In this document: in pieces, positions 7,374 to 57,972 of the stretch
Numbering within the stretch: position 1 is the stretch's first letter
How the letters are laid out: each line of letters starts with the position of its first letter
Assembly (NCBI GenBank): GCA_964586235.1
Contig: CAZPIO010000009.1
Span: 36,916 to 100,915 of the forward strand
Reading direction: 5' to 3'
Origin: an uncultured Planctomycetales bacterium
Lineage (GTDB): Bacteria; Planctomycetota; Phycisphaerae; UBA1845; PWPN01
DNA length: 64,000 bases
Program-made: the position numbers and the translations under genes
The notes under the pieces: generated by a model
Database searches by the model: none
What the model saw: the letters and a program-made list of their open reading frames with translations, nothing else
What the model was told of the DNA's origin: nothing

Positions 7374-8519
7374 TCAGGCCAAGGCGACGGAACGCCGCTC
7401 CACCAGGTCGACGTCCACGAGCACGTGCTCCGGCTTGACGTCGCCGCTACCACTCTGCAATCGTCGTTCCAGCAAATCGACCGCCTTGAGGCCGATCTCG
7501 TGGACGCGCTGGGCAACGATGGTCAACGGCGGGGTCATCGCCTGGGCAATGTCGGAATCATCGAAACCCACGATCGAGACATCTTCGGGAATCCGCAGGT
7601 GCAGCTCGCGGCAGGCCTCGAACACGCCCCACGCAGTGAAGGCGTTATGGGCGAAGATGGCCGCCGGTCGTGTGGTGTTCCTGAGCACGGGAAGGGCCGC
7701 TTCGTACCCGCCCAGCCAGCGACGACCTTCAAGCGTTCCTCGTGTTGTCAGCCGGCCGTCCGCAAAGACTTTCCATTCTCGCCGGGGCTCCAGGCCCCCA
7801 TCGATCAGGGCCTGCTCGTACCCCCGGATTCTGGCCGCAATCGACGTCGCCCAGGGGGGCTCGGTCACCATGATCACCCGGCGGTGGCCGTGCTCCAACA
7901 GATGCTGTGTCGCCAGGTAGGCCCCCTTCTCGTGATTGGATTCAACCAGATCGACTTTCAGGCCGGGAACGCCGCGATCCAGCAGAACGAACGGATAATG
8001 CGCCAGCTTCATCTTGAAAAGGGCTTCAATGTTGTGATGGACACCCGTCGGCAGGATGACGGCTCCTTGAGCGCCGGAGTTGCCGAGCCGCGAGAGGTTT
8101 CGCGCCTCAAGATCCCGGTCGAAGCGCGAATCGTAAATCTGAAGCCCCCACCCGCGTTCCTGGCAACCCGCTTCGATACCGCGTGCGATACCCGTTTCGA
8201 AAGCTCCGGCAAGATCCAGCGTTACCAGAGCTATGATGACTTGAGCCGCGGCCGGGCGGGCAGGGTAGTTCGGACTCACGAATGCCCCTACCGCCGGCAC
8301 GCTGTACAGGCAGCCCTCACGCTCGAGAATGTGGATCGCAGACCGGATGGTGTTGGTGCTGACCCTGAGTTCGCCGGCCAGGCTGCGAAGGGCAGGCAGC
8401 TTGACGCCCGCCGTCAGACGGCCGTCGGTCATGCGTCGGCGTAGCTCGTCAGTAACCACTCGATAACGCGGCGATTTTGAGCGAATCAGCTTGCCATTGC
8501 CGTTCTCGGCTCTGCTCAT
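7374..8519 (-). CDS. AraR-like chimeric transcriptional regulator (GntR-type HTH plus LacI/PBP1-type sugar-binding domain)
   Basis: The N-terminal winged helix LPALRSLAGELRVSTNTIRSAIHILEREGCLYSVPAVGAFV is GntR-type. The C-terminal core carries LacI-family signatures (RRVIMVTEPPWATSIAARIRGYEQAL and VSIVGFDDSDIAQ). I chose the ATG at 8519 (MSRAENG...); the track ORF starts at a TTG at 8555. Confidence 0.85.
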   Translation of the reverse strand: MSRAENGNGKLIRSKSPRYRVVTDELRRRMTDGRLTAGVKLPALRSLAGELRVSTNTIRSAIHILEREGCLYSVPAVGAFVSPNYPARPAAAQVIIALVTLDLAGAFETGIARGIEAGCQERGWGLQIYDSRFDRDLEARNLSRLGNSGAQGAVILPTGVHHNIEALFKMKLAHYPFVLLDRGVPGLKVDLVESNHEKGAYLATQHLLEHGHRRVIMVTEPPWATSIAARIRGYEQALIDGGLEPRREWKVFADGRLTTRGTLEGRRWLGGYEAALPVLRNTTRPAAIFAHNAFTAWGVFEACRELHLRIPEDVSIVGFDDSDIAQAMTPPLTIVAQRVHEIGLKAVDLLERRLQSGSGDVKPEHVLVDVDLVERRSVALA

Positions 8520-8677
8520 GACGACATTGTATAGTCGCGCGGTGACGTAATGCAAGAAGCTGTGTCAACAGATATCAAGGCCATTTTTCCTTAATACCTT
8601 CTCAAACAATGACTTATGCCATATAAGCCGATCAGGAAAACTATCTCAAAAACACGTCACATTATGACGAATCATTG

Positions 8678-8706
8678 TTGCATCAACCCAGTACGTCTGG
8701 TAGGAT
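8678..8706 (+). promoter_or_regulatory. candidate promoter for the giant-gene cluster
   Basis: TTGCAT (8678-8683) is followed by a 17-nt spacer and TAGGAT (8701-8706). It lies in the AT-rich divergent region between the regulator (start 8519) and the gene starting at 8784. Confidence 0.3.
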
Positions 8707-8783
8707 TACGCTTATGGAGCGGGATAGTCTGCCCCACAGCGGGAGTCAACCTTTCTAATCTGAAACGAAGCGGAGGAACGGAA

Positions 8784-11700
8784 ATGATGACAAAACTGAT
8801 GAGCAGGGGTGTTGGCATTCTGGTGATCGGCCTGGTGCTGGCGAGCCAGCGCGCCAACGCGGACGTGATCTGTTGGGAGTTTGCCGTCCATCCCACCCAG
8901 GAACCGATCCCAATGCTCGGGTTCGCATCAGACACGGCATGGCCTGATCCCGGTGAGCCTCCGTATACCCCCTACGGCGGGACGGTCGCGGGCACCGGTC
9001 TCCAGGGTGACGGGACAGCCATCTTCGCGGACGCCACAACCGAGAGCGCCAACTCGGGTTTCGTCTACGGTCTGACCAGCGGCAGCTTCACCATGGACGT
9101 TCGGGTAAGGGTCTTGGAAAGCGTGAACGAAGGCCCCGGCAAGTCAATGACCGTCAAGAACGACGGTAATCAGCGCGGCATCAAGCTGAACACGGACCGC
9201 ATCGCACTAGTCAACGGCGGCGAAGAGGTCGCAGCCGGGAATGTGGACCTGGCAAGCGCCTTCAAGATCCTCCGGTTCTCGGTGAACTCAACCACGGCGG
9301 CTGTTGACCCCAATATCGTCACGTTCTACGCGTGGGACGCGGGCACCTCAACATGGACCTTGGTGGGGAGCACATCGCTGGGCGGGTCCGGCGGCGGGGG
9401 CCAGGTTCCGTTCCCGGGAGTCGGGATCGGAAGCCTCGCCGGCAGCAGCACCCAGAGCGGCAAATTCATCATTGACTGGGCCCGCGTCAATCCCACCGAG
9501 GCGCTGGGCGACACCGTCGGCCCGATGGGGCCGTGCGAGGCAAAGTGTGAATCCACCGTGACACCGGCTGCTGTCCAAACCGACAGCGGCTGGGTCGGCG
9601 GCCTTCCTGCCACGTATGCCAGCATTGACATGGGTTCACCAGATGTCACCAACGGCTTGACTAACGAGAACACCGTGGGCTCCGACGGCGACACCGCGCC
9701 GGTTGTCGTCGCCGGCCGGCCCTGCCGGATGAACGTCGATCCCGCGACGGACGGCTTCATGTACTTCGCGATTGATGACGACGTGGCCTACCAGGGCAGT
9801 CTGCCTGCGGTGACCATTTCGTTTGACTACTTCGACGAGGGCACCGGAGCCTTCGGGCTGACCTATGATGGGCCGGCTTCCGAATGGACCGACGCCGCGG
9901 GCACCGTTCCTCTCAGTGATACAAAAACCTGGAAGCGAGGCAGCTTCACGCTCACCGACGCGTATTTCGGCAACCGCCAGCACGACGGGTCCGATTTCCG
10001 CATCGCCAGGGGCATGAACGTCCATTTCTACATCGACAACGTCTTTGTCTCTCATGCGCCCGGTCCCGAATTCGACTACTCGATAACTAACTCGGGCGCG
10101 GTCGACATCACCTGGGACGTCATTGAAGCCAACGCCGACGGCACGGCCAACGACTACGCCTGGGTAAGTCTGACCAAGACGCCGGGTGTGCTCGCCCCTG
10201 AGGCCACGGCGCCGGTCAAGGCCGCGGTGGATACCGCCACGCTGGCCGCGGGTACGCACACGACGTACCTGAAATTTACCGACACGTGTACGTTCGCGCC
10301 CTACGCCGAGCCGTTCGACTACGCGGATGCTTCCGTTTTGGCCGGCCAGGGAGGCTGGCTCGGGAGCGGCGAGACTTCTCCATTCATCATTCAGACCGCC
10401 CAGCTCCAGCTTAACGGCGGCGCGGAATCCGGTCTGGCGCATTCCGTTTCCCATTCCGTCGGGCTGGCCGTATATGACGGCGTGTTCTCCGTCAAGGTCA
10501 AGGTGAAGACCGGCGGCGCCTCGGCCGGCCGCGAAGCCAACAACTTCTGGAGACTAGCTGCGTTCGACGCGCAGGGGAATCAGCTCGGCTATTGGCAGGG
10601 AACACCCACCACCGTCAGGGCTAGAAATCCGTTGAATGCCAACCAGGCCTCAGATCCTCAGGCGTTGGCCGCCGACTTCAAGATCATGGAGATGAGAAGC
10701 AATACCGCAACCAAGACCACGGAGTACTATTATGACGGCGCCCTGGTGATCAGCTATCCCTTTAACAACACCAGCGGCCTGGCCTCGATCAGTTTTGAAC
10801 GCATCAATGGGGCCGATACCAGTGCCGCCGAGTACGTCTACTTTGATGATGTGGACGTGAGCGCCATCGAGAAGTACCACCTCCGCCAGATCAGCGTAAA
10901 CGTGGTTGACTGCAGCCTGACCGCGGAGCCCAGGGTTGCCTCGGCGAGCGGGTGCACCGGCACCACAACCCGCAGCTTCGCCCTCATCAATAACGGCGTG
11001 AGCAACCTCACCGAGTTGGCTGTCGAGCAGATCACGAGTGGCGGTGAACCGACCACCTACCCGTGGCTGTCGCTGTCGGTGCCCAGTGCGACCCTCGCAC
11101 CGGGCGAGTCCGCCGAGGTGGTGGCCACCATCGACTGGAACTACGTCAGCATGACCGAGGTCGCTTCACTCCGGTTCAAGGCCACTTGCGGCGGCGCCGA
11201 AATCAGGGACAGCCTCGTCGGCGCCCTGACCGTCACGAAGATGGTTGTGCCTCCCGATCCGGTGATCCTGAGATACAACGGCGATGTGGACCCCCTGGCT
11301 GCGAACTCCGCCGGGCCGGGCTACAACTTCAGCGTCTTTGAGGGTGTTCAGCAAGGAGGCATTGTCGCTGATCCTGATGCGGTCGACGGCTTTGCCTATG
11401 AGATCGACGATGTCTCCACCGCGAAGACGAAGTTCATCAGCGAGCCCCCGGCGGCTTTTGCAGACGGTGCCACCCTGGTCGTTCGCATGAAGAAGCTCGG
11501 CGGCGGCACCTACGACGGCGGTCGTTACGGCAACATCTGGATCCACGCCCCCAACATCGCCACTGAGATCTTCTGGGGAGGGCCGAGTGGCCAGCTTGGC
11601 GACAGGGACCGCGGAATCTGGACCACCCTGACCGCGAGCCAGGGCGCGGATGAAAGCTATCATACCATCCGGGTCACGGCCCAGGACACGGGCGGTTCAA

Positions 11701-12215
11701 CGGGTATCGTCATCAACGTGTATTTTGACGAGAACCCGGTGCCGGTGCTGTCGATCACCAACGCAGAGCCACGCGACCCTCAGGCCGGGTCGCAGGACGG
11801 CTTCGGCTTCGGCACACAAGGCACGGGTAACACCGAGCACGTCTACTTTGATTGCCTGGTTGCTACCACGGCCGGGGCGTTCCCGCCCGACCAGGACATG
11901 GGCTGTCTTGGTGAATCCCTGACCTGCACGGATTCCTGTCACAAACCGTTCGCCGACGTGGACGAAGACACGGATGTGGACCAGGCCGACTTCGCGGTCT
12001 TCCAGCTCTGCTACACGGGCGCGGGTGCGACCTCGATCCCCGGCCCGCCGGATTACCCGGCCTACTGCGTGTGCCTGAATCGGGGCGATGACGACAACGA
12101 CGGAGAACCGAACAACGATACCGACATCGATTCGTTCGACCTGACCGCATTCGAGAACTGCGCAAGCGGACCGGGCGTTCCGGCGAACCCGGACTGCCTC
12201 TCATCGGGAGGCTGA
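8784..12215 (+). CDS. secreted multidomain protein with lectin-like modules, X module and dockerin-like tail
   Basis: ATG 8784 with GGAGGA (8772-8777) 6 nt upstream. Signal peptide MMTKLMSRGVGILVIGLVLASQRANA. X module at 9624-10052 (IDMGSPDV...FMYFAIDDDVAYQG...FDYFDEG...TWKRGSFTLTDAYFGNRQHDGSDFR...FYIDNVFVS). Dockerin-like tail at 11955-12212. Confidence 0.85.
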   Translation: MMTKLMSRGVGILVIGLVLASQRANADVICWEFAVHPTQEPIPMLGFASDTAWPDPGEPPYTPYGGTVAGTGLQGDGTAIFADATTESANSGFVYGLTSGSFTMDVRVRVLESVNEGPGKSMTVKNDGNQRGIKLNTDRIALVNGGEEVAAGNVDLASAFKILRFSVNSTTAAVDPNIVTFYAWDAGTSTWTLVGSTSLGGSGGGGQVPFPGVGIGSLAGSSTQSGKFIIDWARVNPTEALGDTVGPMGPCEAKCESTVTPAAVQTDSGWVGGLPATYASIDMGSPDVTNGLTNENTVGSDGDTAPVVVAGRPCRMNVDPATDGFMYFAIDDDVAYQGSLPAVTISFDYFDEGTGAFGLTYDGPASEWTDAAGTVPLSDTKTWKRGSFTLTDAYFGNRQHDGSDFRIARGMNVHFYIDNVFVSHAPGPEFDYSITNSGAVDITWDVIEANADGTANDYAWVSLTKTPGVLAPEATAPVKAAVDTATLAAGTHTTYLKFTDTCTFAPYAEPFDYADASVLAGQGGWLGSGETSPFIIQTAQLQLNGGAESGLAHSVSHSVGLAVYDGVFSVKVKVKTGGASAGREANNFWRLAAFDAQGNQLGYWQGTPTTVRARNPLNANQASDPQALAADFKIMEMRSNTATKTTEYYYDGALVISYPFNNTSGLASISFERINGADTSAAEYVYFDDVDVSAIEKYHLRQISVNVVDCSLTAEPRVASASGCTGTTTRSFALINNGVSNLTELAVEQITSGGEPTTYPWLSLSVPSATLAPGESAEVVATIDWNYVSMTEVASLRFKATCGGAEIRDSLVGALTVTKMVVPPDPVILRYNGDVDPLAANSAGPGYNFSVFEGVQQGGIVADPDAVDGFAYEIDDVSTAKTKFISEPPAAFADGATLVVRMKKLGGGTYDGGRYGNIWIHAPNIATEIFWGGPSGQLGDRDRGIWTTLTASQGADESYHTIRVTAQDTGGSTGIVINVYFDENPVPVLSITNAEPRDPQAGSQDGFGFGTQGTGNTEHVYFDCLVATTAGAFPPDQDMGCLGESLTCTDSCHKPFADVDEDTDVDQADFAVFQLCYTGAGATSIPGPPDYPAYCVCLNRGDDDNDGEPNNDTDIDSFDLTAFENCASGPGVPANPDCLSSGG

Positions 12216-12395
12216 GCCCGCAGGCGTCGGAGCAACAATCGAGGGATGTGGCGAGTATGTGTCCGCCCGACCCGCGAAAAGAACGAAGGGCAGCCCCCGG
12301 TCAAACCGGGTAAGGCATGGTTCACTCGTCCGTGCAACGGCGAATGATTGAAAACGTGCACGCCAGGATGAACCTGCCTGCCGATTCTCCTCCTT

Positions 12396-12427
12396 CCCCG
12401 GCTTCGTGACGGCCGGGGCTGCCTTTT
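12396..12427 (+). terminator. candidate intrinsic terminator after the 8784..12215 gene
   Basis: A 7-bp stem CCCCGGC (12396-12402) pairs with GCCGGGG (12412-12418) around a 9-nt loop. It is followed by CTGCCTTTTCGCTT. The T-run is short and offset, so support is modest. Confidence 0.4.
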
Positions 12428-12712
12428 CGCTTGCGAGGGCGAGAACACGAGACAGCGGGTGCGACACAGGCTTGAGGCTTTGTCTCGCCCGCTGTCTGTC
12501 GGGCGGGGTCTGCTCGGCGCTGCGCGCCTGTCCCCATTTTCGCGGGCTCAGGCCCTCTGGAGTGCCACGGACCCCGGGTTTGCGCGGTGAAGGTGCACGA
12601 GGGCAGATCAGCCGCCCGCCGCTCCGCCGGCGTGCAGCCGCCGGGAAGGCCACGCTGAGGCGCAGTCCAGATCCGCCGGGCGGGGACAAGTGGGTCGTTG
12701 GACGGTAGCGAT

Positions 12713-14914
12713 ATGAAGGGACGAGGACCCGGCGCAGAGCCGGATTCATCTGGTGTGCTGCGTATGTCCGCGGTTCTCGCGGCATGGGTGATCTTGCTGC
12801 CCACGTCGGCTTGGGTGGGCAACAGCGCCCGGGGAGCGCCTGCCCCGACCATCACCTGGCCGGCCGCGGGGGCGACGTTGGGCTCCGACCGGCCCGACAT
12901 TACCTGGACCAGCGTGCCCATCACCGGCTATGAAGTCCACATCGGTCCGTTTAATGATCCGTCCTATCACCCTTCTCCAACAGACGGCTGGGACTCGGGA
13001 GAGGTAAGCCTGTCCGTGTCCACCAACACCGCCATGTCCGGACCTCTGGCGACCCAGCGGTGGTACTATGTGTTCGCTCGCCTCCGCGACAACGGCGGCT
13101 GGGGGCCCTGGAGTTCACTCGGCCGGAGCTTCTATGTCGCCGGGTGGTTGATCGACGATCCCTCCCCAATCGCCGATCCCGTCGGCTTCCAGTGGCCGCA
13201 TTGCATCTGCTATAACCCGGATCTCAAGGAATATCTGCTGGCCTTTGCCGACCGCCAGCCCAATGTGCAGTCCAGGATCTCGTACTACCTGCTCAACGGC
13301 GACGGGAGCAAGAAAACCGCCACGCTCACCATCACCGACGACGACCATCTCGATGGTGTTCATGAAGCGGGCGTGGTCTACAACAGCCTTCTGAAGCACT
13401 ACTTCCTGGTTTACACCGGGTGGAGGAACGACAATACCCCGCAGTTACGAGATCAACTTCGCGGTCAGCGCGTCCAGCCCGCGACCGGGGCCCCGATCGG
13501 GTCCAGCTATCTGCTCTATGAGAGGGGGGACCTGACCGCCATGGCCGAGCACCGGGTGAGCTACTCGCCGCAGAGCGATGCCTACCTGGTTGTCTGGAAG
13601 CACACCGAGGCGGGCTTCAACATCTGGGCCCTTCGCGTGGATGCGGCAACGGGCCTGGCTGACGGGATCCTCGACCTCACCGCCGCTGAAACCCGATATA
13701 CCGCCTTTCCCGCCGTTGCGTGGAACTCGGCCGACGATGAGTTCCTGGTGACCTTCCAGGTCGATGCCTCCTGCAGTCAAGAGGATCCGACGATCTGTCA
13801 GAGGGACCCCAACTGCGACTGCCTGACCAACACCTGGTGCATCGAGCACGGATGCCCCAATAACGGATGGGACTACTACGGCCAGCGGGTTTCGGCCCAG
13901 AACGGAATGCTGCTTGCGATTGGCGGCAATATACCGCTGGCGACCACCTCCGCTTGGGAATACGACGGTGACATCGTCTATGACAGCGATCTGCACCGGT
14001 ACCTGATGGTCTACGTGGGCGGCTCCGGCGCGACGACCATCTCGGGACAGTTCATTGCCGCGGATGGGACCCCGTCGGGCAGCCGGTTCCCCGTGCTCAG
14101 CTCGCCCTCGAGCGGCGTAGCGGTCAACCTGGGTCAGCTTCCCAGCACCCGCGAGTACGTGGCCGCATGGCAGGATTGCTGCACCACACGCAACTACGCC
14201 CGCAGGATTTCCCAGGTTGGAGCACTTATCGGCGAGCCGTTCAAGACTACCGGGACAATCATTGCCGATGACGACGATGTGCGCTACGGCGGTGGCAACT
14301 GGAAACCGCTTCCCACACCCAACCCATTCACCGACGAGTTCCTGTTCTCCTGGTACTGTAACCGTGATGATGTTTACGTCCGTCGCTACAAGACCTATCC
14401 AAGCCTGGACGTGACCGCCCCCGCCCCGGTGACGAGCTTCACGGCCGTGCCTCAGCATCGCCAGATCAGCTTGAGCTGGACCAATCCCGACACGGCGGAT
14501 TTTCTGGGCACGCTGATCCGCTGCAAGACCGACGGCGTCCCCGCGGACGCGCACGACGGCCTGCCGCTGGTGATCAAGCCGAACACCCCCGGCTCCAGTG
14601 ACAGCTATGTGCATACCGGGCTGGACCGGGCCACGACGTACTACTACGCTGCGTTTTCCTATGACGGCGTGCCCAATCACGGGAGCAACGTGGGCGAGAT
14701 TGCTCGGCCCGCGGCCCCTGCCGACTTCGATCTCGACGGGGACGTGGATCAGGTTGACTTTGGCCTCTTCCAGGGATGCTATTCCGGCTCGGGGGTTGGC
14801 TGCGACCCAGGATGCCGGGAAGCCGATCTGGATTCAGACGGTGATGTGGATCAGGCGGACTTCAGCACATTTCAGCCGTGCATGGGCGGGGCGAATCAGT
14901 CGCCCGGGTGCTGA
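12713..14914 (+). CDS. secreted protein: Fn3-like WDS module, repeat (propeller-like) core, Fn3, dockerin-like tail
   Basis: Track ORF 12698..14914. The ATG at 12713 or 12764 precedes the hydrophobic MSAVLAAWVILLPTSAWVG. The core contains recurring strand motifs (YLLAF, YFLVY, YLVVW, FLVTF, YLMVY, YVAAW, FLFSW). Fn3 at ~14417-14722 (ISLSWTNP...YYYAAFSYD). Tail at 14723-14911. Confidence 0.8.
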   Translation: MKGRGPGAEPDSSGVLRMSAVLAAWVILLPTSAWVGNSARGAPAPTITWPAAGATLGSDRPDITWTSVPITGYEVHIGPFNDPSYHPSPTDGWDSGEVSLSVSTNTAMSGPLATQRWYYVFARLRDNGGWGPWSSLGRSFYVAGWLIDDPSPIADPVGFQWPHCICYNPDLKEYLLAFADRQPNVQSRISYYLLNGDGSKKTATLTITDDDHLDGVHEAGVVYNSLLKHYFLVYTGWRNDNTPQLRDQLRGQRVQPATGAPIGSSYLLYERGDLTAMAEHRVSYSPQSDAYLVVWKHTEAGFNIWALRVDAATGLADGILDLTAAETRYTAFPAVAWNSADDEFLVTFQVDASCSQEDPTICQRDPNCDCLTNTWCIEHGCPNNGWDYYGQRVSAQNGMLLAIGGNIPLATTSAWEYDGDIVYDSDLHRYLMVYVGGSGATTISGQFIAADGTPSGSRFPVLSSPSSGVAVNLGQLPSTREYVAAWQDCCTTRNYARRISQVGALIGEPFKTTGTIIADDDDVRYGGGNWKPLPTPNPFTDEFLFSWYCNRDDVYVRRYKTYPSLDVTAPAPVTSFTAVPQHRQISLSWTNPDTADFLGTLIRCKTDGVPADAHDGLPLVIKPNTPGSSDSYVHTGLDRATTYYYAAFSYDGVPNHGSNVGEIARPAAPADFDLDGDVDQVDFGLFQGCYSGSGVGCDPGCREADLDSDGDVDQADFSTFQPCMGGANQSPGC

Positions 14915-15059
14915 CCGGTGGAAACGGAGGGATGGCGAAGTATGCCTGCGAAATCTGACGAGGCAATCGCCTTGAAAGCCGCGGGAGGGAGGGGAGCCCC
15001 TGTACCAATGCCCCCCAACGACCGGATGTAGTGCAAGGAGAGCATGAAGGAGGCCTGAA

Positions 15060-18000
15060 GTGCGGATCTCTGCCCTTCGGCGTGGCCAACGAGTGATGTT
15101 GGGGGCGATGGCCCTGGTGGTGACCTTGACGGGATCCGCCCCGTTGCAGGCGGTGGGCATCCATCCATCCGGGCGGTACTACACCGATACGGCCGGGAAT
15201 CCTGTATTCCTGATCGGCTACTATGGCTGGGCCGCGGTGCCCGCCGGCTATTTCATCGACCACCCATCCCAGTACGCCGACATGATCACCCGCGGGGCAC
15301 CCTACGGGATCAACTACAGCCGCATCAGCCTGGGCGTCAACCGCTTCACCAGCACGACCAATCCGCCGGTGTATTATGGCTCGCCGACGCCGGTCCCCTT
15401 TCTGTACGTCAATGGCAAGGCTGATCTCAGCCAGTGGGACCCGGTGTTCTGGAACGGCCTGAAGGCCCAGTGCGACCTGGCCCGGGCCAACGGCGTGATC
15501 GTCCACATCGCTTTTTTTGACGGCGTGGAGTTGCGGAGTCAGGGGGGCGCGGCCTACGGCTACAACAACTCGTTCTGGAATCCGAGCAACCACACGTCAT
15601 CCTTCTACCCCACAGGCGACTATTCGGACTGGCCCGGCGCTTTCTATAGACTCAATGAGTTCAACAGCAACACCGGCATCGGCTACTACCAGAGACGCGT
15701 GATCGACAAGACCCTGGCCGAGACCTTCGGCTACGACAACGTCTTCTACGAGGTAGGTAACGAACTGCTCAGCGCCGATCAGAACTGGTACACCGCTGTG
15801 GTCAGTTACGCCCGGTCGCAGACGAACAAACCGGTCACGCAGTGCAGCCATGCATTCAGGGCTGGCGGCATCCAGGGTTACGCCGACCACGTCGGCGACA
15901 CCGCGGCCGAGGTGAAGAGCCACATTGCCGGCTTCGTGGCCACCGCCAACGGTCAGTACCCGACCTGGATCGACCCCGACGGCCCGGCCCTGAGCAACGC
16001 CGATATCCCCGCCAACGAGCTGCGCGCCGCCGCCTGGTACTCATTCACTGGCGGGGCCGCATGCTGGGGCGGATTCACGGTGGATTACTGGCTCGGGGGA
16101 CGGGGCTTCTGGCCGGACACGGTGAACGCCTACAAGCACTTGCAGGACTTCCTCAAGCAGTTGAACGTCCAGTTTGCCCAGATGGTGCCCCACCCTGAAC
16201 TGGTCAGCAACAGCAGCGCCAACTCCTGTCTGGCGTACGTTGGGCACGAATACGTGGCTTACGTTCGCAGCGACGCCGGCGTGACGGTGGACCTGACCGG
16301 CTTGTCGGGCTCGCTGCCGTACTACCTCTACGACCCGAAGAACGACGTGTACAGCAGCCGGCAGACCGTGAGCGGCGGCGGCCAGCGGGTGTTTGCCCGG
16401 CCGGACGGGGCCGCGGACTGGGTCGTGTATATCGGCACGGGCGAGCTGTCGGAGTGCCCTCCGATCAGTCCACCGAGCCCGCTTGGGGCTCAGCAGACCC
16501 TCGGGGACGGCATCGAGCCCGGCATCGCCACCGACGCCCAGGGCAGTATTCACGTCGTCTATATGAACAACGGGACAATCTGGTACCGTCAAGGCGATCC
16601 CGACGCCGTCTTCGACGCCCCTGAACTGATCCCCTCTCCGACAACGGGTCCGGCCCAGTTCAACGCCCCTCATGTAGTCTGCGACGGCAGCAATACCCCC
16701 CACGTGGTCTTCTCGGACGCCTTCTATCCGACCCCGGGGAACTGCTGGTACACCAATCGCATCGGTGGGAGTTGGAAGGCTCCGGTGTCGGCATTCCCCG
16801 GCGTGATCGTCATGTACCCGCGCCTGGCCTTGTGCGGCTCGTATGCCTTCGTAGCAGCCTCGACCGGGACCCCCGAGGGCACCATCGCACGCCTTTCGAA
16901 TCTTGGCGGCACGCCTCATGTAGACCTCACAACCGGCACTTACCTGTTGGCCCCCTACCCGGTCGTCAACTGTGCTGCCAGCCGTCTGTTTGTCGTCGGC
17001 CGCAATTCCGGCAACGGGCACTACCTCCAGGAATACAATTTCAATCTCGCAACGGTCAGCAGCGGCCAGAAGATGACCAATGGCACGCCCAACAAGACCG
17101 CCGAGCCCACTGCCGCGATCATCGACAGCTCCAATGTCGTGCACGCCATCGGCAATTGCGGGGCAACGGGCATTGACCCCGAGACGAACAGCGAACTGTG
17201 GTACAACAACACCCAGCGCATGGGCCTGGGCGAAAACGCCGTCCTCGGTCTCGCCGGTGTGCCCGGGTCCGGCTGGTGGGGTGACAACGTTTATCCCCAC
17301 ATGGTCATGGACATCAACGGCAAGATCTGGCTTGGCTTCCGGGACATCACCACGGGCGAGGGCAAAATCAGCTCCGTCAGCGACGCCGGTTTCACCGAAC
17401 CGATCGTGTTCACCCCGGTTATCACCGACCCTAACAACCCCATCCGGCGGCGGTGGAACTGCCAGGTCGCGCCCGCGCCTACAGGCGGCGTCTATGTCAC
17501 CTGGGATTACGGCAACCAGTGCTACTTCCGGCCGGCCGGGGTGTTCTCACTCTGCGATCTGGCGGTCTCGTTCGACCTCGGCTCTCCCGATGTGGCGAAC
17601 TGCATGACCCATCCGCAGGGCGGCGACGGCGACACGACGCCCGATACCATCGGCGGCCGAAGCTGCCGGCGCAACATCGATCCGAGCCCCCCGCCGGCGC
17701 CCGGCGCTGACTACTACTTCTATTTCACCGTCTGCGACGGGTTTGCCTACCAGGGCAACAGGCCGGAACTCTACATCGCACTCGATTACTACGACTCCAG
17801 CGGTGGGTCGATTTCGCTCGATTACGACTCGAACACGGGCAACGATATTCCGGCCATCTATAAGAACGGCGGCAGCATTACCTTGACCGGCTCGAACACG
17901 TGGAAGAACGCGGTGTTCCACGTCACCGACGCGTATTTCGGCAACCGCCAGAACGGCGGGGCCGACTTCCGCTTCGGCAACGTGGGGAACTGGTTCTACC

Positions 18001-18500
18001 TGGACAACGTGCGGGTTTCAGTCCAGCAGCCGCTGCCACCGGTCATCGCCGAAGTAACGCCGGACCTGCAGACCGCCTATCCAGGGGTCGCATACTCTCA
18101 ACAACTGGCGTTGACCCAGAACTGCCCGAAATCAACCTGGTCGATGGTCCAGGGCCCGCCGGGAATGTACGTCTGCCAGAGCAATGACCGCGTCCTCGGC
18201 TGGACCCCTGCTCCGAGCGACCTGGGCGATCACACCATCGTGGTCCAGGCCTGCAACCCGATCGGCTGCGATACGGTAAGCTGGATCGTACGGGTGCTTT
18301 CCAGCAGGGATTTTGACCTGGACGGCGACGTCGACCAGGAGGACTTCGGCTTCTTCCAGGGCTGCCTCTCGGGCAGCGGTGCCGGCTATACCTCGGGCTG
18401 TGCTCCCGCAGACCTGGAATCGGACGGCGATGTCGATCAGGCTGACTTCAGCCTGTTCTGGCCCTGCATGGCCGGTTCAGAGGGCTTGCCGGGCTGTTGA
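15060..18500 (+). CDS. secreted putative clan GH-A-like glycoside hydrolase with beta-propeller-like middle, X module, Ig-like domain and dockerin-like tail
   Basis: GTG 15060 with GAAGGAGG (15046-15053) 6 nt upstream. Signal peptide ...MLGAMALVVTLTGSAPLQA. The TIM-barrel-type motif VFYEVGNELL supplies an acid/base-like NE. X module 17571-18020, Ig-like domain 18021-18308, tail 18309-18497. Confidence 0.85.
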   Translation: MRISALRRGQRVMLGAMALVVTLTGSAPLQAVGIHPSGRYYTDTAGNPVFLIGYYGWAAVPAGYFIDHPSQYADMITRGAPYGINYSRISLGVNRFTSTTNPPVYYGSPTPVPFLYVNGKADLSQWDPVFWNGLKAQCDLARANGVIVHIAFFDGVELRSQGGAAYGYNNSFWNPSNHTSSFYPTGDYSDWPGAFYRLNEFNSNTGIGYYQRRVIDKTLAETFGYDNVFYEVGNELLSADQNWYTAVVSYARSQTNKPVTQCSHAFRAGGIQGYADHVGDTAAEVKSHIAGFVATANGQYPTWIDPDGPALSNADIPANELRAAAWYSFTGGAACWGGFTVDYWLGGRGFWPDTVNAYKHLQDFLKQLNVQFAQMVPHPELVSNSSANSCLAYVGHEYVAYVRSDAGVTVDLTGLSGSLPYYLYDPKNDVYSSRQTVSGGGQRVFARPDGAADWVVYIGTGELSECPPISPPSPLGAQQTLGDGIEPGIATDAQGSIHVVYMNNGTIWYRQGDPDAVFDAPELIPSPTTGPAQFNAPHVVCDGSNTPHVVFSDAFYPTPGNCWYTNRIGGSWKAPVSAFPGVIVMYPRLALCGSYAFVAASTGTPEGTIARLSNLGGTPHVDLTTGTYLLAPYPVVNCAASRLFVVGRNSGNGHYLQEYNFNLATVSSGQKMTNGTPNKTAEPTAAIIDSSNVVHAIGNCGATGIDPETNSELWYNNTQRMGLGENAVLGLAGVPGSGWWGDNVYPHMVMDINGKIWLGFRDITTGEGKISSVSDAGFTEPIVFTPVITDPNNPIRRRWNCQVAPAPTGGVYVTWDYGNQCYFRPAGVFSLCDLAVSFDLGSPDVANCMTHPQGGDGDTTPDTIGGRSCRRNIDPSPPPAPGADYYFYFTVCDGFAYQGNRPELYIALDYYDSSGGSISLDYDSNTGNDIPAIYKNGGSITLTGSNTWKNAVFHVTDAYFGNRQNGGADFRFGNVGNWFYLDNVRVSVQQPLPPVIAEVTPDLQTAYPGVAYSQQLALTQNCPKSTWSMVQGPPGMYVCQSNDRVLGWTPAPSDLGDHTIVVQACNPIGCDTVSWIVRVLSSRDFDLDGDVDQEDFGFFQGCLSGSGAGYTSGCAPADLESDGDVDQADFSLFWPCMAGSEGLPGC

Positions 18501-18523
18501 GTAACGTCGATAAGGAGTTGCGA

Positions 18524-21500
18524 ATGGGATCTCAAATGAGACGGCATCACAGGCAAGTGACGTGTGTTGGGTTAATCAGCCTGGTGCTGGCCACCGGCGC
18601 GATGGTCCAGGCCGGGGTGGTGCTGGACGATCCGCTGCAGGGTTCCACCAAAGGAATCCAGGATGGTGGGACCTTCGATTCGGGCGGCTGGAGGGTTACA
18701 GGCGATTATGACTCTATCATTTGGCATCTGCCGCACACTGTGAGCAAGGGTGCCGCCGAGTTCTATGTTAAAGGGATAGACTCGAACTATCCGCACAAGA
18801 CGGAGCACTTCCACATGTACGACTACACGTGGTACAACTCCGACTATCAGTACGGCGACCCCGGCTACAGGAACAATCCCTACAAGCATTTCGTCAGGAA
18901 GACCGGAACCGACGATGCGGCCAGAAACGGTTCCTGCGAGATCGTCTACGCCACCCCCCTGGAATGGTTCGAGTTGGACACGGCGGTGTTCTCCTGGTCC
19001 ACGGACACAAACTACAAAGTTCGCATCGAGTGGGGGCCGGAGGGCGACAACACTCGCCTCAAGGTTTTCAGAGACGGCGTCCAGATGCTCAGCGAAGCGA
19101 TCGCAGGCAACTATGTTCCCACCGGACACAGTGTCCGGCTCGGGGCAAGCCCGAGGAGAGCCGGTGAGGGCTCGGAAATCGGTGCCGTATACAGCTATCT
19201 CAAGGTCTGGGATTTGTCGAGTTACGTTCCTGATCCTCCGACGGTGAGTCTTCCGGCGAATGGAGAAACGATCAGGAGCAACCTGGCATTCATCAAATGG
19301 ACGGGCGACAGCCATACTGATTACCAGGTGAGGATCTGTACCGCAGATAACCCCGAGGCAGGCATCATATGGGATTCACAAGAGGTAACCTCCATCCGTG
19401 ACTGGGCATGGACAGGCACCCTGTCCAACCTGGCCAACTACTACGTCTATGTCAGGCTGGGGAACTCCGGGGACTGGAGCGACTGGAGCGCCGCGGGCCG
19501 CTGGTTCCGAGTGGATAATTCATACAATGACTCCAACAACGTGAAAGTCCAGGGCAACAGCCTGAAAGACGGCAACGGACCGTTCCTGGGTTTCGGCTGG
19601 ACCTACATGGCGGCCATGTGGATGTGCAGGAACGACCGGGCGGGATTCCAGAGCGACCTGGATTTCATGAATGACAAGGGTTTCAACTACATGCGGATTC
19701 TGTCGGAGGTGCCCGGAGCCTGCTCGAGCTGCTACTGGTGGGGCCGCAGCATCAACGCGAGCACTTACCAATGCCAGCACGGTGCCTGGGCAAATCCGTG
19801 GTCGGATTACGATCAGCAGCTCAAGGACTGCATCGATATCGCCTACGACCAGTATGGGATCAGAACGGAAGTGACCATTTTCGGCGGCGCCGGCGAGTCA
19901 TTCCCGACATACGCGGCCCGACAGGCACACTGCCAGCGGGTATTGGACAGTCTTGTGGGACGGGAGCACAAGGTGATCCAGATCGAAGTGGCCAACGAGG
20001 CCTGGCAGACGGGTTTCCCCGGTTCGCAGGGCATAGCCGACCTGCGGAGCCTGGCGGCGTATCTCGCGGCCCGCACCTCGATTCCCGTTTCACTCAGCGC
20101 CACCTGCGGGACTAATGATGATCTGCTGACGTTATACAGCGGGAGCGCAGCGGATATCACCACGGAGCATTTCAGCAGGGACCTGGGAACGTCTGAAGGT
20201 CATTGGTATCCGGTACGGGATTGCTGGCGGGTGGGAACGCTGTATCCGACGATAGCGCCGGTCAGCAGCAATGAGCCGATCGGCCCCGGTTCCTCGGTCA
20301 ACAGCGAAGACCATCCGATTCACATCGCCTCGGCCGCCGTTTTCGCCTGGACGGCAAACCTGCCCATGTACGTGTTTCATTCGCGGGCCGGTGTTCGCCG
20401 CGACGTGCCCTTCCAGAACATGGCCGGAGTAAACGAGCTGGTGTACCTGCGGCAGATACTGCCGCCGGACCTGGCCAGTTGGGTCAGAAACGACGGGATC
20501 GAGGGTTCCGCACCGTTTACCGTCTTCTGCAACGGCCAGGCGAACAAGTACTGGACCGATGTAGTTGGAGCCAGCACCGGATGCCACAGGAGCATCGGCG
20601 GGATCAAGGCTGGGGAGTTTGTCTGCTATCCGCAGGGGATACTCGACGGAGGGGTCACCCTGCAGGCCCGACGAAACGTGAGCTTCACCATCTACAATCC
20701 GCTCACGGGTGTAACCGTCGATACCATGACCAGGAACGCCGGTGAGCAGTTCAATCTACCGAAGGGGCCGGAAGCCTACATCATCAAGGGCATCTTCACC
20801 GACATCATCGGACCACCTGACCAAGCCTCCATCGATCTGGGCGACCCCGACGTGCAGGACTGCATGGCCCTGGTCCCGGTCGGCGACGGCGACACGGTCG
20901 TGGCCACGGTCGGCGGCCGGACCTGCCGCAAGAGCGACCAGCCTGACGATGACTATTACTTCTACTTCGCCGTCTGCGATGCCTTCGCCTATGAGGGCAG
21001 CCGGCCGGATCTCTGGATCAGCTTCGACTACTACGACTACGACACCGGCACCATCACCCTGCAGTACGACTCCGTCGCCGGGATCGGTCAGCCTGGCGGG
21101 GATGCCACCCATTACGTAAACGGCGGCAGCGTCACCCTGACCAACAGCAACCCCCCGACCTGGAAGCACGCGAAGTTCCACTTGACCGATGCCGGCTTCA
21201 ACAATGGCCAGAACGGAAACGCCGACTTCCGCCTCGGGAAGCTCTGGGGCCCGTCCTGGCCAGCCAAGCAGCCGTTCTACATCGACAAGGTGTGGGTCAC
21301 GGCCGAGGAACCGGTGCCTCCGGTCATCGACGAAGTGGCTCCCGATCCAAGGATCGTCGCCGTCGGCACCGCGTACACCGAGCCGTTGAGCCTGGCCCAG
21401 GGCACGTTGCCGGTGAGTTGGTCGGTGGTCGAAGGTCCGGCGGGTCTGCAGGTGAGCTCGAGCGGCCTGGTCAGCGGGTGGACACCCGGTATCGCCGACC

Positions 21501-21778
21501 TGGGCGAGCATACGATCACGGTCAAGGCGGAGAACTTCGAGGGCTGGGATCCCGAAACCTGGGTGGTGCAGGTGACCTCCAACAAAGATTTCGACCTCGA
21601 CGGCGACGTGGACCAGGCGGACTTCGGCCTGTTTCAGCGTTGCCTGTCAGGCGACGGAATCGGCTATCCGGACGGCTGTGCCCCCGCTGACCTGAGCGGG
21701 GACGGCGACGTCGATCAAAGCGACTTCAACCTGTTCTGGGCGTGCATGGCCGGCTCCGGCCGGCCGCCAGGGTGTTAA
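18524..21778 (+). CDS. secreted putative clan GH-A-like glycoside hydrolase with LamG-like N-domain, WDS module, X module, Ig-like domain and dockerin-like tail
   Basis: ATG 18524 with AAGGAG (18512-18517) 6 nt upstream; the track ORF starts at a TTG at 18497 that overlaps the previous stop. Signal peptide ...VTCVGLISLVLATGAMVQAG. The motif VIQIEVANEAWQ includes ANE at 19991-19999. WDS module 19229-19516, X module 20831-21301, Ig-like domain 21302-21586, tail 21587-21775. Confidence 0.85.
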   Translation: MGSQMRRHHRQVTCVGLISLVLATGAMVQAGVVLDDPLQGSTKGIQDGGTFDSGGWRVTGDYDSIIWHLPHTVSKGAAEFYVKGIDSNYPHKTEHFHMYDYTWYNSDYQYGDPGYRNNPYKHFVRKTGTDDAARNGSCEIVYATPLEWFELDTAVFSWSTDTNYKVRIEWGPEGDNTRLKVFRDGVQMLSEAIAGNYVPTGHSVRLGASPRRAGEGSEIGAVYSYLKVWDLSSYVPDPPTVSLPANGETIRSNLAFIKWTGDSHTDYQVRICTADNPEAGIIWDSQEVTSIRDWAWTGTLSNLANYYVYVRLGNSGDWSDWSAAGRWFRVDNSYNDSNNVKVQGNSLKDGNGPFLGFGWTYMAAMWMCRNDRAGFQSDLDFMNDKGFNYMRILSEVPGACSSCYWWGRSINASTYQCQHGAWANPWSDYDQQLKDCIDIAYDQYGIRTEVTIFGGAGESFPTYAARQAHCQRVLDSLVGREHKVIQIEVANEAWQTGFPGSQGIADLRSLAAYLAARTSIPVSLSATCGTNDDLLTLYSGSAADITTEHFSRDLGTSEGHWYPVRDCWRVGTLYPTIAPVSSNEPIGPGSSVNSEDHPIHIASAAVFAWTANLPMYVFHSRAGVRRDVPFQNMAGVNELVYLRQILPPDLASWVRNDGIEGSAPFTVFCNGQANKYWTDVVGASTGCHRSIGGIKAGEFVCYPQGILDGGVTLQARRNVSFTIYNPLTGVTVDTMTRNAGEQFNLPKGPEAYIIKGIFTDIIGPPDQASIDLGDPDVQDCMALVPVGDGDTVVATVGGRTCRKSDQPDDDYYFYFAVCDAFAYEGSRPDLWISFDYYDYDTGTITLQYDSVAGIGQPGGDATHYVNGGSVTLTNSNPPTWKHAKFHLTDAGFNNGQNGNADFRLGKLWGPSWPAKQPFYIDKVWVTAEEPVPPVIDEVAPDPRIVAVGTAYTEPLSLAQGTLPVSWSVVEGPAGLQVSSSGLVSGWTPGIADLGEHTITVKAENFEGWDPETWVVQVTSNKDFDLDGDVDQADFGLFQRCLSGDGIGYPDGCAPADLSGDGDVDQSDFNLFWACMAGSGRPPGC

Positions 21779-21851
21779 CATGCGTCAACGATTGGCATCG
21801 GCCGTCATCATGGCTCTTTGTGCGTGTCGCGCGGAGATAGGGAGATCTTTG

Positions 21852-24800
21852 ATGAACAAGTTCTGCTTAACGTCCGCTGGTTTCGCCGTTGTCTTCATTT
21901 CTCTCTTGTTTCCTGCTGTTGTGGGAGCAGCCCCCGTACTGCCTCATGTCTACCATAGCAGCATCAATCTCAGGCCTTACGAGTGCATTGCAGCGCACAA
22001 TGTTACCTACTGGAAGAACAAGATATACATGGGAGGGGCATCAATCTGTGACGACAGAACTGTCTGGCAGATCAATGTGGCCAATCCCGACAACCTTGTA
22101 TGCGAAAGCGGCGCTGGACCCGGCTGCAAAGCGTATGGGGTTAAGGTTGTAGAGGACATTCTCTATGTCGCCAACTGGTCTACAATGATGCGGACTTACA
22201 GCGTTGCAGGCGCTATTACGCAGCTCGGTGAGTATTCCGCTCCCTTTTGGTTTGGTTGGAACATAGACGCCTCAAACAACCGGGCCTACGTTAACGAGGG
22301 TAACGAGACCCAGAGCAAACTGGTTATCATGGACGTCTCGAATCCAGCGTCGCCTAGCGTGATCTCCTATCTCCCTCTCAGCAGGGGCGGCGGGCTGACC
22401 GTCCGTGGCAGCTATGCCTACTTCACGGACGACTACAGGTTCACGATTGCCAACATCTCCGACGAGAACAATCCTTACATCCTGTCAAGCATCGACTTCG
22501 GCCATCTGCTCCTTGGAGGCGTTCAAGTGCGCGGCAACTACGCCTACATGTGCTGGAGCCAGGTTACGGATGGCGGACTGATGGTCTTTGACATTTCGAA
22601 TCCTACCGCGCCAGTACTTAAGGGACAGTTCGCCGGCGAGGGCGCGACTGACATGTGCCTCCTTGGCGATTATGCGTTTTACCCGACTTCCGGCAACGGG
22701 TTCATGACAGTAGACATATCAGATCCGACGAATCCACATGCGGTGGCACAGTCCGAAATCCCCTTCTACGCGCTGGAGCTGTGCGTAACCGGAAATGGGC
22801 GGTATGCCTACGTCGGAAGTCTCGCCGGCGACAACGAGGGATGGCTGAGCTCCTTTGAAGTTCTGGATCAGGATCCGGACAACGCCGGGCCGACCAACTG
22901 GAGCAACTGCTCGCTCAGCGAGGCATCCTGGGATCTTCAGTACGAAGGCGACGCCCTGCCGACGGCGGCCAATCCGGCGTGGACACTCGTCGAGGGCTCG
23001 GATACCTGGGCCGGCGCGTCGGGCGGCATCCTGCGAATCAACGACACCGGAACCTCGCTCGGCGACAAGGTCAAGTGGGCCCGCAGTTGGGATGCCACCA
23101 ACAGTCGCGGCACCACGGTTCTCACCCGGGCAAAATGCGCCTCCTACAGCACCGGGCCTGGCTCGATCTCGTCGCTCGTCAATCTTTCCGTCCGGGACGG
23201 CAAGTACATCGAGGACTTCTCCATCCTCTCCGACCGGATCCGGGCCGTCCGGGCGAGCCAGGAGTACTTCCTGGACGGCACCGCCTGGCATACGTACCGG
23301 ATCACCACCCAGGGTTCTCAGTTCCAGGTGTTCGTTGATGAAGCTTCAGCGGCCGTTCTCACGGCGCCGCTGTTTGTGAGCAAGGATCAGGACCCGGATG
23401 CCCGCTGGGCGCGGGTGTTGATCGGCAGCGGATCGAGTCCCGGCACACAGGACATCTCCTTCGACTATGTCCACTGTTTCTCGAACGGCGCCGTAGGGCC
23501 GAGCACCGTCGTGAACGAGTTCACTCCCACAATCAGCGCGGACGCCGCCGACGTGGCCGGGAAAGGCTCGCTCAGCGGGATCGATCCGGCCACCGCCAGG
23601 GTGCAATGGTCAACCGACGGTGGTCTCACCTGGAATTCGAGCGGCGGCATCCAGTGGCAGTGCCGCTATGAGGCAACTCTGCTGCCATCGGCGTCGACGC
23701 CGAACTGGGATGTGCCCGAGGGCAGCGAGAGTTGGGCCAGCGTCAGTTCCGGCGTACTCCGCGTCAATGACACCAGCACCGCCCCCGGCACGAAGATTAA
23801 GTGGTCGCGCGACTGGAATGCCTCTCCCGCGGTCGGGACGACGGTGGTCGCGCGGGCCCGATGTGCCTCGGTTGGCGGAGACACGACGTTCCTGGGGAAC
23901 ATCTTCGTCGAGGACGGCTCCACCGGCGAACGCTTCAAGATCATGACCGACCGGCTGGTGGCGGCCGAGACAGGGTTGACTTATCTGCTCGACGCAACGC
24001 AATGGCACGTCTACCGGATCACGACGAAGGAAGGGCAGTTCCATGTGTATGTGGATGAGAACCCCGCGCCGGTGCTGGCGGGCGTCCTCGGCATGGCGAC
24101 CTCCAATAACCGCGTCATGTTCGGGAGTGGAGCCAGCGCCGGGACACAGGACATCTACTTCGACTATGTGCGTTATACGGCCCAAGGAGGACTGCCTCCG
24201 GGCCAGGGTGATGGAGGCGGCCCCGTGACGGTGACCTGCGTTCCCAGGAGTCCGCTGGCCCCGCCCGACCGCGCCACCGTGACTGCGTATGACATCCCCT
24301 TCGTCCAGAACTCGCAGGTTCTCAACAGGGTCAGGTTCTCTCTGACTGACCTGGCGGGCAACGTCGGACTGAGCCCGATCTACGCCGTGCGGATCGCAAA
24401 CGCACCGCCCCCGGCTGTGGCCGATCTGGTGGCGGCCTCTGCCGACCGCCAGGTCACGCTCTCGTGGCAGAACCCGTCGTCCGTCGAATTCACCGGCACC
24501 ATGATCCGCTTCAGCACGACTGACTATCCAGCCGGTCCGGCCGACGGAACGCTGCTGGTGGACCGGGCGAATGCGCCCGGCTCGAATGACAGCTACGTCC
24601 ATACCGGACTGACCCGCGGCCAGACATACTACTATTCCGCGTTCGCTCACGACGCCGTCCCTAATTACGCTGTCGCCGCACATGCCAAGGGGAAGGGCTC
24701 TTTTCTGCCCGACCTTGACCTGGACGGCGACGTGGATCAGGAGGATTTCGGCCGTCTGCAGGCTTGCTTCTCCGGCTCCGGGCAAGGCTTCGAGGCCGCA

Positions 24801-24902: not shown

Positions 24903-25031
24903 TCGACTGCCTGAGCGCCCGGAGGATTGCCTCAGGGCCTGCGCGGGGATATCGTTGAAGTTGGCTGGGGCAGCTTTGTGCAAGCCGTCCCGGCTTTGTT
25001 GAGGCACCTGTTTTCATCGAGGGCGATGCAG

Positions 25032-33200: not shown

Positions 33201-33256
33201 GCAGCGATTCCTTCCGTTCTCGTGCCTCCCATGCAAAGCCGACTGCACGCGGCTTA

Positions 33257-56808: not shown

Positions 56809-56904
56809 GGTTAGCTCCCCATAGATGAAAAACGCCGACAATACCGACCGAGATAATGCAGAACGGGGTCTGTGTCCAGAGGACGGGTCGGAGGCAGCCG
56901 TTAC

Positions 56905-57726: not shown

Positions 57727-57972
57727 CTTGAAATCAGGCAGTTCCAGGATCGTGTCCTCCTACCTTATTCTACATCCCTGATTGCGGACTTGTCTCCGAC
57801 AACAGGCCGAACGGATCGATTGTTAGCCGCCGGTACCCCCCGGAAAACGCCCGGTAGACACGCCTGCGGCCATTTTTGTATCATGGATGGGGGTCGCGGA
57901 ATCCGATTCAACCCGGCGGAACAACCGGCTTGGGGCGAAAGGGCGCTGTGGACCTGCCGATCAGGCGAGGGA

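Follow-up and report, generated by a model that had tools for sequence, protein, structure and literature searches.

The described systems closest to the element reported here are the jelly-roll carbohydrate-binding modules (CBMs), the cleaved-adhesin domains of the Porphyromonas gingivalis Lys-gingipain, and the cohesins and X-dockerin (X-Doc) modules of cellulosomes. Jelly-roll CBMs have a two-sheet topology and a size of about 130–180 amino acids (aa), and they are appended to secreted glycoside hydrolases (GHs), often in tandem and beside other CBMs or dockerins. The gingipain K domains are jelly rolls of about 175 aa that carry Ca2+ sites and occur as repeated non-catalytic modules of secreted, surface-attached enzymes. 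Cohesins are nine-strand jelly rolls of about 150 aa. Here, we describe a segment of about 145 residues, termed the X module, which occurs in four secreted proteins encoded in 64 kb of DNA from an uncultured Planctomycetales bacterium (contig CAZPIO010000009.1, positions 36,916 to 100,915). This whole stretch is referred to as the window.

The X module shares its size, its predicted fold class, and its setting within secreted GHs with these systems, and it differs from all of them in sequence. It represents a large family for which Pfam-A, NCBIfam, and the PDB hold no model or sequence match. A CBM-type role in glycan binding was favoured as its function, and the competing interpretations are weighed below together with the evidence that bears on each of them.

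Four homologous copies in the window

The X module was searched for in the six-frame translation of the window. Copies 1–3 aligned with pairwise identities of 43–58%, and copy 4 aligned with them at approximately 24% identity with motifs in common. A hidden Markov model (HMM) built from copies 1–3 alone recovered copy 4 at E = 7e-9 and gave no further match below E = 0.1. When the family HMM was built with all window sequences left out, it returned copies 1 to 4 at E = 3.2e-46, 1.8e-45, 2.3e-42, and 6.3e-23, respectively, and no other locus. Since this independent model recovered exactly the four segments that the first-pass annotation had aligned by eye, they are real, homologous copies of one module.

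After strands 2, 5, and 8, the copies have loops of different length; in copy 3, those after strands 5 and 8 are longer. Copy 4 had been taken as the C-terminal 106 aa of its gene (29823–30140), and this extent had to be revised. The envelope of the family HMM covers about 137 aa (Table 1) and reaches some 35–40 aa further towards the N-terminus. Because this extension includes the GDG...GR strands, copy 4 is a full module. Despite its divergence, it retains GDG, GR, YxD, YDS, W, and ADFR, and with them the conserved signature positions of the family.

The four host open reading frames (ORFs), A to D, each begin with a segment that resembles a signal peptide when read by eye. Among these hosts, the order of X module, Ig-like domain (He_PIG), and dockerin-like tail was found only in ORFs B and C. 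It had been proposed for three proteins, and ORF A does not follow it: its tail lies about 630 aa downstream of the module, and a weak match to BACON_2, a BACON-type Ig domain, follows the module directly. In ORF D, the module itself forms the C-terminus, as had been described. The module had also been placed after catalytic-looking domains in general; a recognisable catalytic domain was found in ORF D, which is GH138-like, and Pfam and PDB searches revealed none in ORFs A, B, and C.

A large family without a library model

The libraries covered were Pfam-A (24,736 models, the newest from 2025), NCBIfam release 20, and all PDB chain sequences. In Pfam-A at E ≤ 10, the four isolated window copies gave noise only (DUF4097 at 0.13 and GH5_C at 0.23). 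When 51 diverse instances were searched one by one at this threshold, no family was matched by more than one member, and the sole CBM match was CBM_11 (E = 0.045, 1 of 51). None of the Pfam CBM profiles, among them CBM4_9, CBM_6, CBM9_1, CBM_11, CBM_35, and CBM96, matched consistently over the module. NCBIfam gave no match on the module, and PDB searches with 4-sequence and 51-sequence profiles returned 0 matches at E ≤ 10.

The annotation of the host proteins gave the same picture. No Pfam family was common to all hosts, either among 55 metagenome proteins or among 52 genome host ORFs. The CBM9, CBM6, CBM35, and CBM96 matches in these hosts fall outside the module, and the positioned Pfam matches never overlap it. 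Proteins that consist of the module only are unnamed or called 'hypothetical protein' and carry no precomputed Pfam entry, and longer members are named for other domains ('PKD domain-containing' or 'cellulose binding domain-containing'). A literature search for a described family that covers the module, or for BPa0997, a PDB match of ORF D, found nothing relevant. The suspicion that the module is unannotated was therefore upheld in all three libraries.

The module could also be a divergent member of a CBM or DUF family that is already curated, for example, a CAZy CBM family that lacks a Pfam model or structure. Its fold class, which is that of many CBM families, would agree with this. The empty Pfam-A, NCBIfam, and PDB searches, even with profiles at E ≤ 10, the borrowed or hypothetical names of the members, the missing Pfam entries of the module-only proteins, and the blank literature make this improbable.

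A word-indexed homologue search returned only 23–24 short, unnamed metagenome fragments, even when the 51-sequence profile was used, and the family became visible only through an exhaustive HMM search. HMMER was run over 1.84 billion cluster representatives (50% identity clusters), and it retrieved 3,100 clusters at E ≤ 1e-3, 1,664 at ≤ 1e-10, and 294 at ≤ 1e-30. The module was present once in 87 of the 171 proteins retrieved, twice in 37, three times in 27, four times in 16, and five times in 4; accordingly, 84 of the 171 hold 2–5 copies in tandem. One secreted protein (P0042) contains nothing but its signal peptide and two modules. The module is thus portable, as the first-pass annotation had suggested: it occurs with varied partner domains, in arrays of up to five, at C-terminal positions, and in this stand-alone two-module protein.

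To view the distribution across taxa, 185,579 species-representative genomes were scanned with the single peptide pattern DAYF[GA]NRQ; since the scan relied on this pattern alone, its taxon list is biased towards the subfamily of the window. The scan gave 67 loci, mostly in Planctomycetota, and the best match was 64% identical to the window. The chromosome of a Planctomycetota metagenome-assembled genome (CP070790) contained 12 module copies, and the cultured Fontivita pretiosa (Phycisphaerae) contained two. Other loci belonged to Acidobacteriota, Armatimonadota, Verrucomicrobiota, Pontiella (which we take to be Kiritimatiellota), Victivallales (Lentisphaerota), and Chloroflexota.

In addition, a group of short metagenome proteins (P0001–P0008 and P0010; L001 470–1213) was observed. 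They are about 210–250 aa long and combine one X module with a conserved C-terminal domain of about 80 aa. This domain is unannotated and ends in '...KFFRLRxF'; it may act as a signal for sorting or anchoring. The L001 contig also bears PSCyt/PSD and HXXSHH genes of the Planctomycetota type.

Predicted fold, conserved signature, and candidate function

An AlphaFold2 (AF2) model of copy 2 from the 51-sequence alignment showed nine beta strands and no helix of 4 or more residues, with a mean predicted local distance difference test (pLDDT) score of 95.4 and a predicted template modelling (pTM) score of 0.90. An earlier AF2 model from a 7-sequence alignment reached a pLDDT of only 74 and was superseded. 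In a Foldseek search against the PDB, the model found generic jelly-roll neighbours only, at template modelling (TM) scores of 0.36–0.55, a root-mean-square deviation (rmsd) of 4–8 Å, and identities of 9–17%. The best matches were the gingipain cleaved-adhesin domains K3 and K1 (E = 1.3e-4) and the EphA7 ligand-binding domain (LBD). Further neighbours were CBM29, CBM16, CBM4, CBM22, CBM6, CBM61, CBM28, a porphyran-binding CBM, meprin MAM, and Cry toxin domains. A fold search of a viral library yielded equally weak matches to CBM-like modules in phage tail and receptor-binding proteins. According to the model, the fold class is clear, an all-beta jelly roll, and no known family is close. The beta-sandwich that had been guessed from the sequence is therefore well predicted, with jelly-roll CBMs and adhesin domains as its neighbours at TM scores of about 0.5.

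The CBM set among these neighbours comprised CBM29 (1wcu), CBM16 (2zex/2zez), CBM4 (1gui/1gu3), CBM22 (4xup), CBM6 (1uy0), CBM61 (2xon), and CBM28 (1uww/3acf), with a Foldseek probability of approximately 1.0 and TM scores of 0.36–0.52. Like them, the module is of jelly-roll CBM size, has two predicted sheets, and is attached to secreted GHs in tandem or next to other CBMs and dockerins. Unlike them, it shows only 11–17% identity and no Pfam CBM profile match, and its signature (YxD, YDS, W, and DAxFxNRQNxGADFR), which none of these CBM families has, is unusually invariant across catalytic partners. The gingipain domains K1, K2, and K3 (4itc, 3km5, and 3m1h) were matched at TM scores of 0.43–0.55 and an rmsd of 5–6 Å, and they are likewise repeated in surface-attached enzymes. 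However, their identity to the module is 14–15%, the module has no Pfam match to the cleaved-adhesin family, and its partners are GHs and sulfatases, not proteases. The Eph LBD and meprin MAM are also jelly rolls (Foldseek E of about 3e-4 to 2e-3 and TM of about 0.4–0.5), but they are eukaryotic protein-binding domains with no sequence relationship and an unrelated context, and the likeness is at the level of the fold class only.

The module lies within carbohydrate-active enzymes (CAZymes) of the GH39, GH99, GH5, Glyco_hydro_cc, and GH138-like types and within sulfatases. Pfam matches in the 52 genome host ORFs were GH39 (8), GH99 (6), Glyco_hydro_cc (6), Dockerin_1 (6), Sulfatase (4), GH5 (3), and CBM96 (3). 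The metagenome hosts bear GH99, GH5, CBM9, CBM6, CBM35, DUF5010, PKD, fn3, and type IX secretion system (T9SS) sorting domains. Multi-module hosts carry GH99-like or DUF5010 domains, as in P0024 and P0025, which combine a GH99-like domain with 3–4 modules. The confidence of the AF2 model and the tandem, C-terminal, and stand-alone occurrences describe a discrete, autonomously folding module in the sense of the CAZy definition of a CBM. The carbohydrate- or Ca-binding role that the first-pass annotation had put forward as a possibility would fit this CAZyme context.

Conservation was computed over 299 distinct instances in the numbering of copy 2. The positions D19-G20 (83–85%), G29 (80%), R33 (79%), Y51-F52 (87–89%), D56 (78%), Y73 (96%), D75 (96%), Y85 (98%), D86 (86%), W111 (95%), D120-A121 (83%), F123 (95%), N125 (84%), R126 (76%), Q127 (78%), D132 (99%), F133 (90%), and R134 (95%) were conserved. 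Many of the conserved residues are Asp, Asn, Gln, Arg, or aromatic. The motif read earlier from the four window copies matches this family signature, in which Y73, D75, Y85, W111, F123, D132, and R134 stand at 95–99%.

From the strand order and hairpin connectivity, we infer that Y85/D86 and the loop-to-strand segment D120–R134 lie at one apex of the sandwich and that W111, Y73, and D75 lie at its other end. Judging from strand alternation, W111, D132, and R134 would point outwards rather than into the core. A putative binding or metal site would comprise the near-invariant polar and aromatic residues D19-G20, Y73-x-D75, Y85-D86, W111, and the segment D120-A-x-F-x-N-R-Q-N-x-G-A-D132-F-R134, most of which, by strand order, would gather at one apex. 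It may be likened to the loop sites of CBM6, CBM35, and other type C CBMs, possibly with a structural Ca2+.

On balance, we lean towards a new, CBM-type family of accessory modules that have no catalytic role themselves, and we infer glycan binding from the CAZyme context across the family, the CBM fold neighbours, the tandem copies, the autonomous fold, the conserved signature, and the GH138-like ORF D. Such a module would keep its enzyme bound to a polysaccharide or a glycan-coated surface, possibly with the assistance of Ca2+ at the apex site. Tandem copies would add avidity, and attachment to the cell would be provided by the adjoining Ig domains together with tails of the dockerin-like, PEP-CTERM-like, or T9SS type.

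Several observations weigh against this interpretation. The exposure of the conserved residues was deduced only from strand alternation, and the top fold matches, all of them weak, are an adhesin (gingipain K1/K3) and the protein-binding Eph LBD rather than CBMs. Moreover, in CBM families that target substrates, the residues of the binding site usually differ between members. The putative site of the module is 80–99% conserved across partners as diverse as GH39, GH99, GH5, GH138-like enzymes, and sulfatase, which points to a common ligand or to a purely structural or metal site.

Because the signature barely varies across very different partners, which is atypical for substrate-tuned CBM families, an alternative to a substrate-targeting CBM has to be considered, in which the module has one common ligand and a structural or anchoring role. 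The ligand could be a ubiquitous target, such as the envelope glycan or matrix of the producer itself. Alternatively, the module could serve as a stalk, namely, a rigid spacer stabilised by Ca2+. In both versions, the catalytic domain would be oriented relative to an anchor on the cell surface, and the adhesin domains among the best fold matches are in keeping with this. Of the 73 genome host ORFs, 33 have a dockerin-like double EF-hand tail downstream of the module, and in the other 40 no such tail was found. In 22 of the 33 tailed ORFs, the gap between module and tail is 94–146 aa, which is Ig-sized as in ORFs B and C. Such a tail is also present in 42 of 64 single-module metagenome representatives versus 5 of 84 multi-module ones, with phylogeny and the ranking by summed score as confounders of this split. 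Other anchors occur as well: P0019 has a PEP-CTERM-like tail (by eye), and P0028 and P0032 have T9SS sorting domains. However, a spacer role would hardly account for arrays of up to five copies or for stand-alone module proteins, and PKD, Ig, and fn3 domains already serve as spacers in the same proteins. Furthermore, about 10 of the 73 genome host ORFs end with the module, as ORF D does, and have no anchor. We therefore regard an anchoring or spacer role as a serious but rather unlikely alternative to the CBM-type role.

The tails also raise the question of a protein-binding module. At the extreme, it would be a cohesin-like receptor for the dockerin-like tails of planctomycetes, by which enzymes would be chained to one another or docked on scaffolds with several modules. 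Non-cellulosomal cohesin/dockerin systems, called a 'planctosome', have been proposed for some Planctomycetes (PMC6461901), which lends this idea some background. The module resembles a cohesin in length and, in the AF2 model, in its nine-strand jelly roll; its top fold matches (Eph LBD, gingipain adhesin, and MAM) bind proteins. The prevalence of tails in single-module proteins and the seven dockerin-tailed proteins within the window would also fit. On the other side, there was no cohesin among the top 50 Foldseek PDB matches and no Pfam Cohesin match for the four copies or the 51 instances, and there are phyla and proteins that have the module but lack dockerin-like tails. The confounding stated above also applies to the division into single- and multiple-copy proteins. 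The multi-module proteins bear GH99-like or DUF5010 domains together with CBM9 and are therefore enzymes, not scaffoldins. A protein-binding module of this type is thus highly improbable.

The X-Doc modules of cellulosomes were considered in the same context, since the X module stands near a dockerin-like tail in many proteins. In contrast to X-Doc modules, an Ig-like domain separates module and tail, and the module often occurs without a dockerin. An X-Doc identity was rejected on the basis of the 94–146 aa gap in 22 ORFs and the lack of a tail in 40 of 73 ORFs and 79 of 84 multi-module proteins.

In the most far-reaching reading, which is a long shot, the target of the module could be the surface glycan of the producer itself or, at the extreme, the dockerin-like tails, in which case the module would be the missing cohesin-equivalent. 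If the tails were the target, Planctomycetota would assemble secreted glycan-degrading enzymes into surface complexes by means of the module.

Host proteins and surroundings of the locus

The features of the window are listed in Table 1. The true start of ORF A is probably M57 at 8784, since a protein of 1143 aa (P0073) equals the ORF A product from M57 on. ORF B itself had no Pfam or PDB match, and its homologues (P0116, P0179, and L013) have an identical layout and weak Collagen_bind_2 matches. The homologues of ORF C likewise share its layout. ORF D matched Pfam Glyco_hydro_67N, the NCBIfam alpha-D-galacturonidase model at 2.4e-37, which is below the curated cutoff, and PDB 6hze/6hzf (BPa0997) at E = 1.5e-22. 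We take BPa0997 to be a member of GH138. The module is at the equivalent position in homologues of ORF A (P0124 and P0122), in those of ORF B named above, and in homologues of ORF C (P0088, L004, L007, and L008). The combinations of host and module are therefore old and did not arise by recent local shuffling.

Table 1. Positions of the X-module copies, their host ORFs, and other features in the window.
Feature	Position	Strand	Description
X-module copy 1	9621–10052	+	ORF A aa ~336–479; family HMM envelope spans the full model, 159 bits
X-module copy 2	17568–18020	+	ORF B aa ~837–987; family HMM 160 bits; query of the AF2 model
X-module copy 3	20828–21301	+	ORF C aa ~778–935; family HMM envelope 152 bits
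X-module copy 4	29835–30245	-	Divergent; C-terminus of ORF D; family HMM 99 bits
Host ORF A	8616–12215	+	Signal peptide, unannotated N-terminal domain, X module, BACON-like Ig, further unannotated domains, dockerin-like tail
Dockerin-like tail of ORF A	11955–12212 (about)	+	Regular-expression motif DVDEDTDVDQADFAVF
Host ORF B	15060–18500	+	Signal peptide, ~480-aa N-terminal domain, BNR-like region, X module, Ig-like domain, dockerin-like tail
Dockerin-like tail of ORF B	18309–18497	+	Regular-expression motif DFDLDGDVDQEDFGFF; sequence close to the tail of ORF C
Host ORF C	18497–21778	+	Signal peptide, ~230-aa N-terminal domain, Ig-like, ~430-aa conserved catalytic-looking domain, X module, He_PIG Ig, dockerin
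N-terminal domain of ORF C	18497–19540	+	~230 aa after the signal peptide; unannotated
Central domain of ORF C	19541–20830	+	~430 aa; unannotated
He_PIG Ig-like domain of ORF C	21338–21544	+	Pfam E = 1e-3, aa 948–1016; between module and tail
Dockerin-like double EF-hand tail of ORF C	21584–21730	+	Pfam Dockerin_1 E = 2.2e-4, aa 1030–1078; regular-expression motif DFDLDGDVDQADF
Host ORF D	29820–33248	-	Signal peptide, GH67N-like and GH138-like catalytic region, other domains, C-terminal X module
Dockerin-tailed genes	4062–7286, 8616–12215, 12698–14914, 15060–18500, 18497–21778, 21780–24902	+	Six consecutive genes on this strand; a seventh gene lies at 57490–61311
Regulator	7374–8555	-	GntR-type helix-turn-helix with periplasmic-binding fold; divergent from ORF A
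LVIVD-repeat protein	21780–24902	+	With dockerin-like tail
Transglutaminase-core protein	24927–26051	+	
Periplasmic sugar-binding protein	28677–29654	+	Peripla_BP_4; adjoins ORF D
NPCBM/NEW2-domain protein	53191–56841	-	1216 aa

Seven large secreted proteins of the window share a Cys-containing double EF-hand dockerin-like tail with the motif D.D.DGDVDQ.DF..F...C. The X module is present in only three of the seven, and the window showed no partner of the cohesin type.

Two further domains of ORF C drew attention. The central domain is a second unannotated and strongly conserved domain, with 46–53% identity in 7 aligned Planctomycetota homologues, including one from F. pretiosa. BLAST found at least 12 homologues (45–54%), and all seven of the aligned ones carry the X module downstream. 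The domain had no Pfam match and no PDB profile match. In an alignment of 8 sequences, N152-E153 in 'EVANEAWQ' and the entire 'SNEPIGPG' were invariant; because these motifs look like the catalytic motifs of clan GH-A, the domain is a candidate new GH family. The N-terminal domain recurs at 40–48% identity in at least 12 other module-bearing proteins, again at the N-terminus, and had no Pfam match save a weak Ig_Rha78A_N match just downstream.

Regarding the possible substrate of the locus, Collagen_bind_2 accompanies the GH140-type barrel, and the GH138 and GH140 families act on rhamnogalacturonan-II in Bacteroides. Based on the GH138-like ORF D and the weak Collagen_bind_2 matches in the homologues of ORF B, which correspond to the region 15060–16520, the locus may target a complex pectin-like glycan. 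The GntR-type regulator and the Peripla_BP_4 protein are consistent with a regulated glycan-utilisation locus.

Taken together, the interpretation of the first-pass annotation is supported: the X module is a real, widespread, and unannotated family of a familiar kind, and it is a candidate for a new CBM family. As uncharacterised beta-sandwich accessory modules are common, the finding is not conceptually surprising. The family belongs to the secreted polysaccharide degraders of poorly studied and ecologically important phyla, including Planctomycetota, Acidobacteriota, Verrucomicrobiota, Kiritimatiellota, and Chloroflexota. Naming the module would fill a recurrent blank in CAZyme annotation and would be useful for enzyme discovery, and its ligand would give a hint of the targets of the attached enzymes or of their retention at the cell surface.

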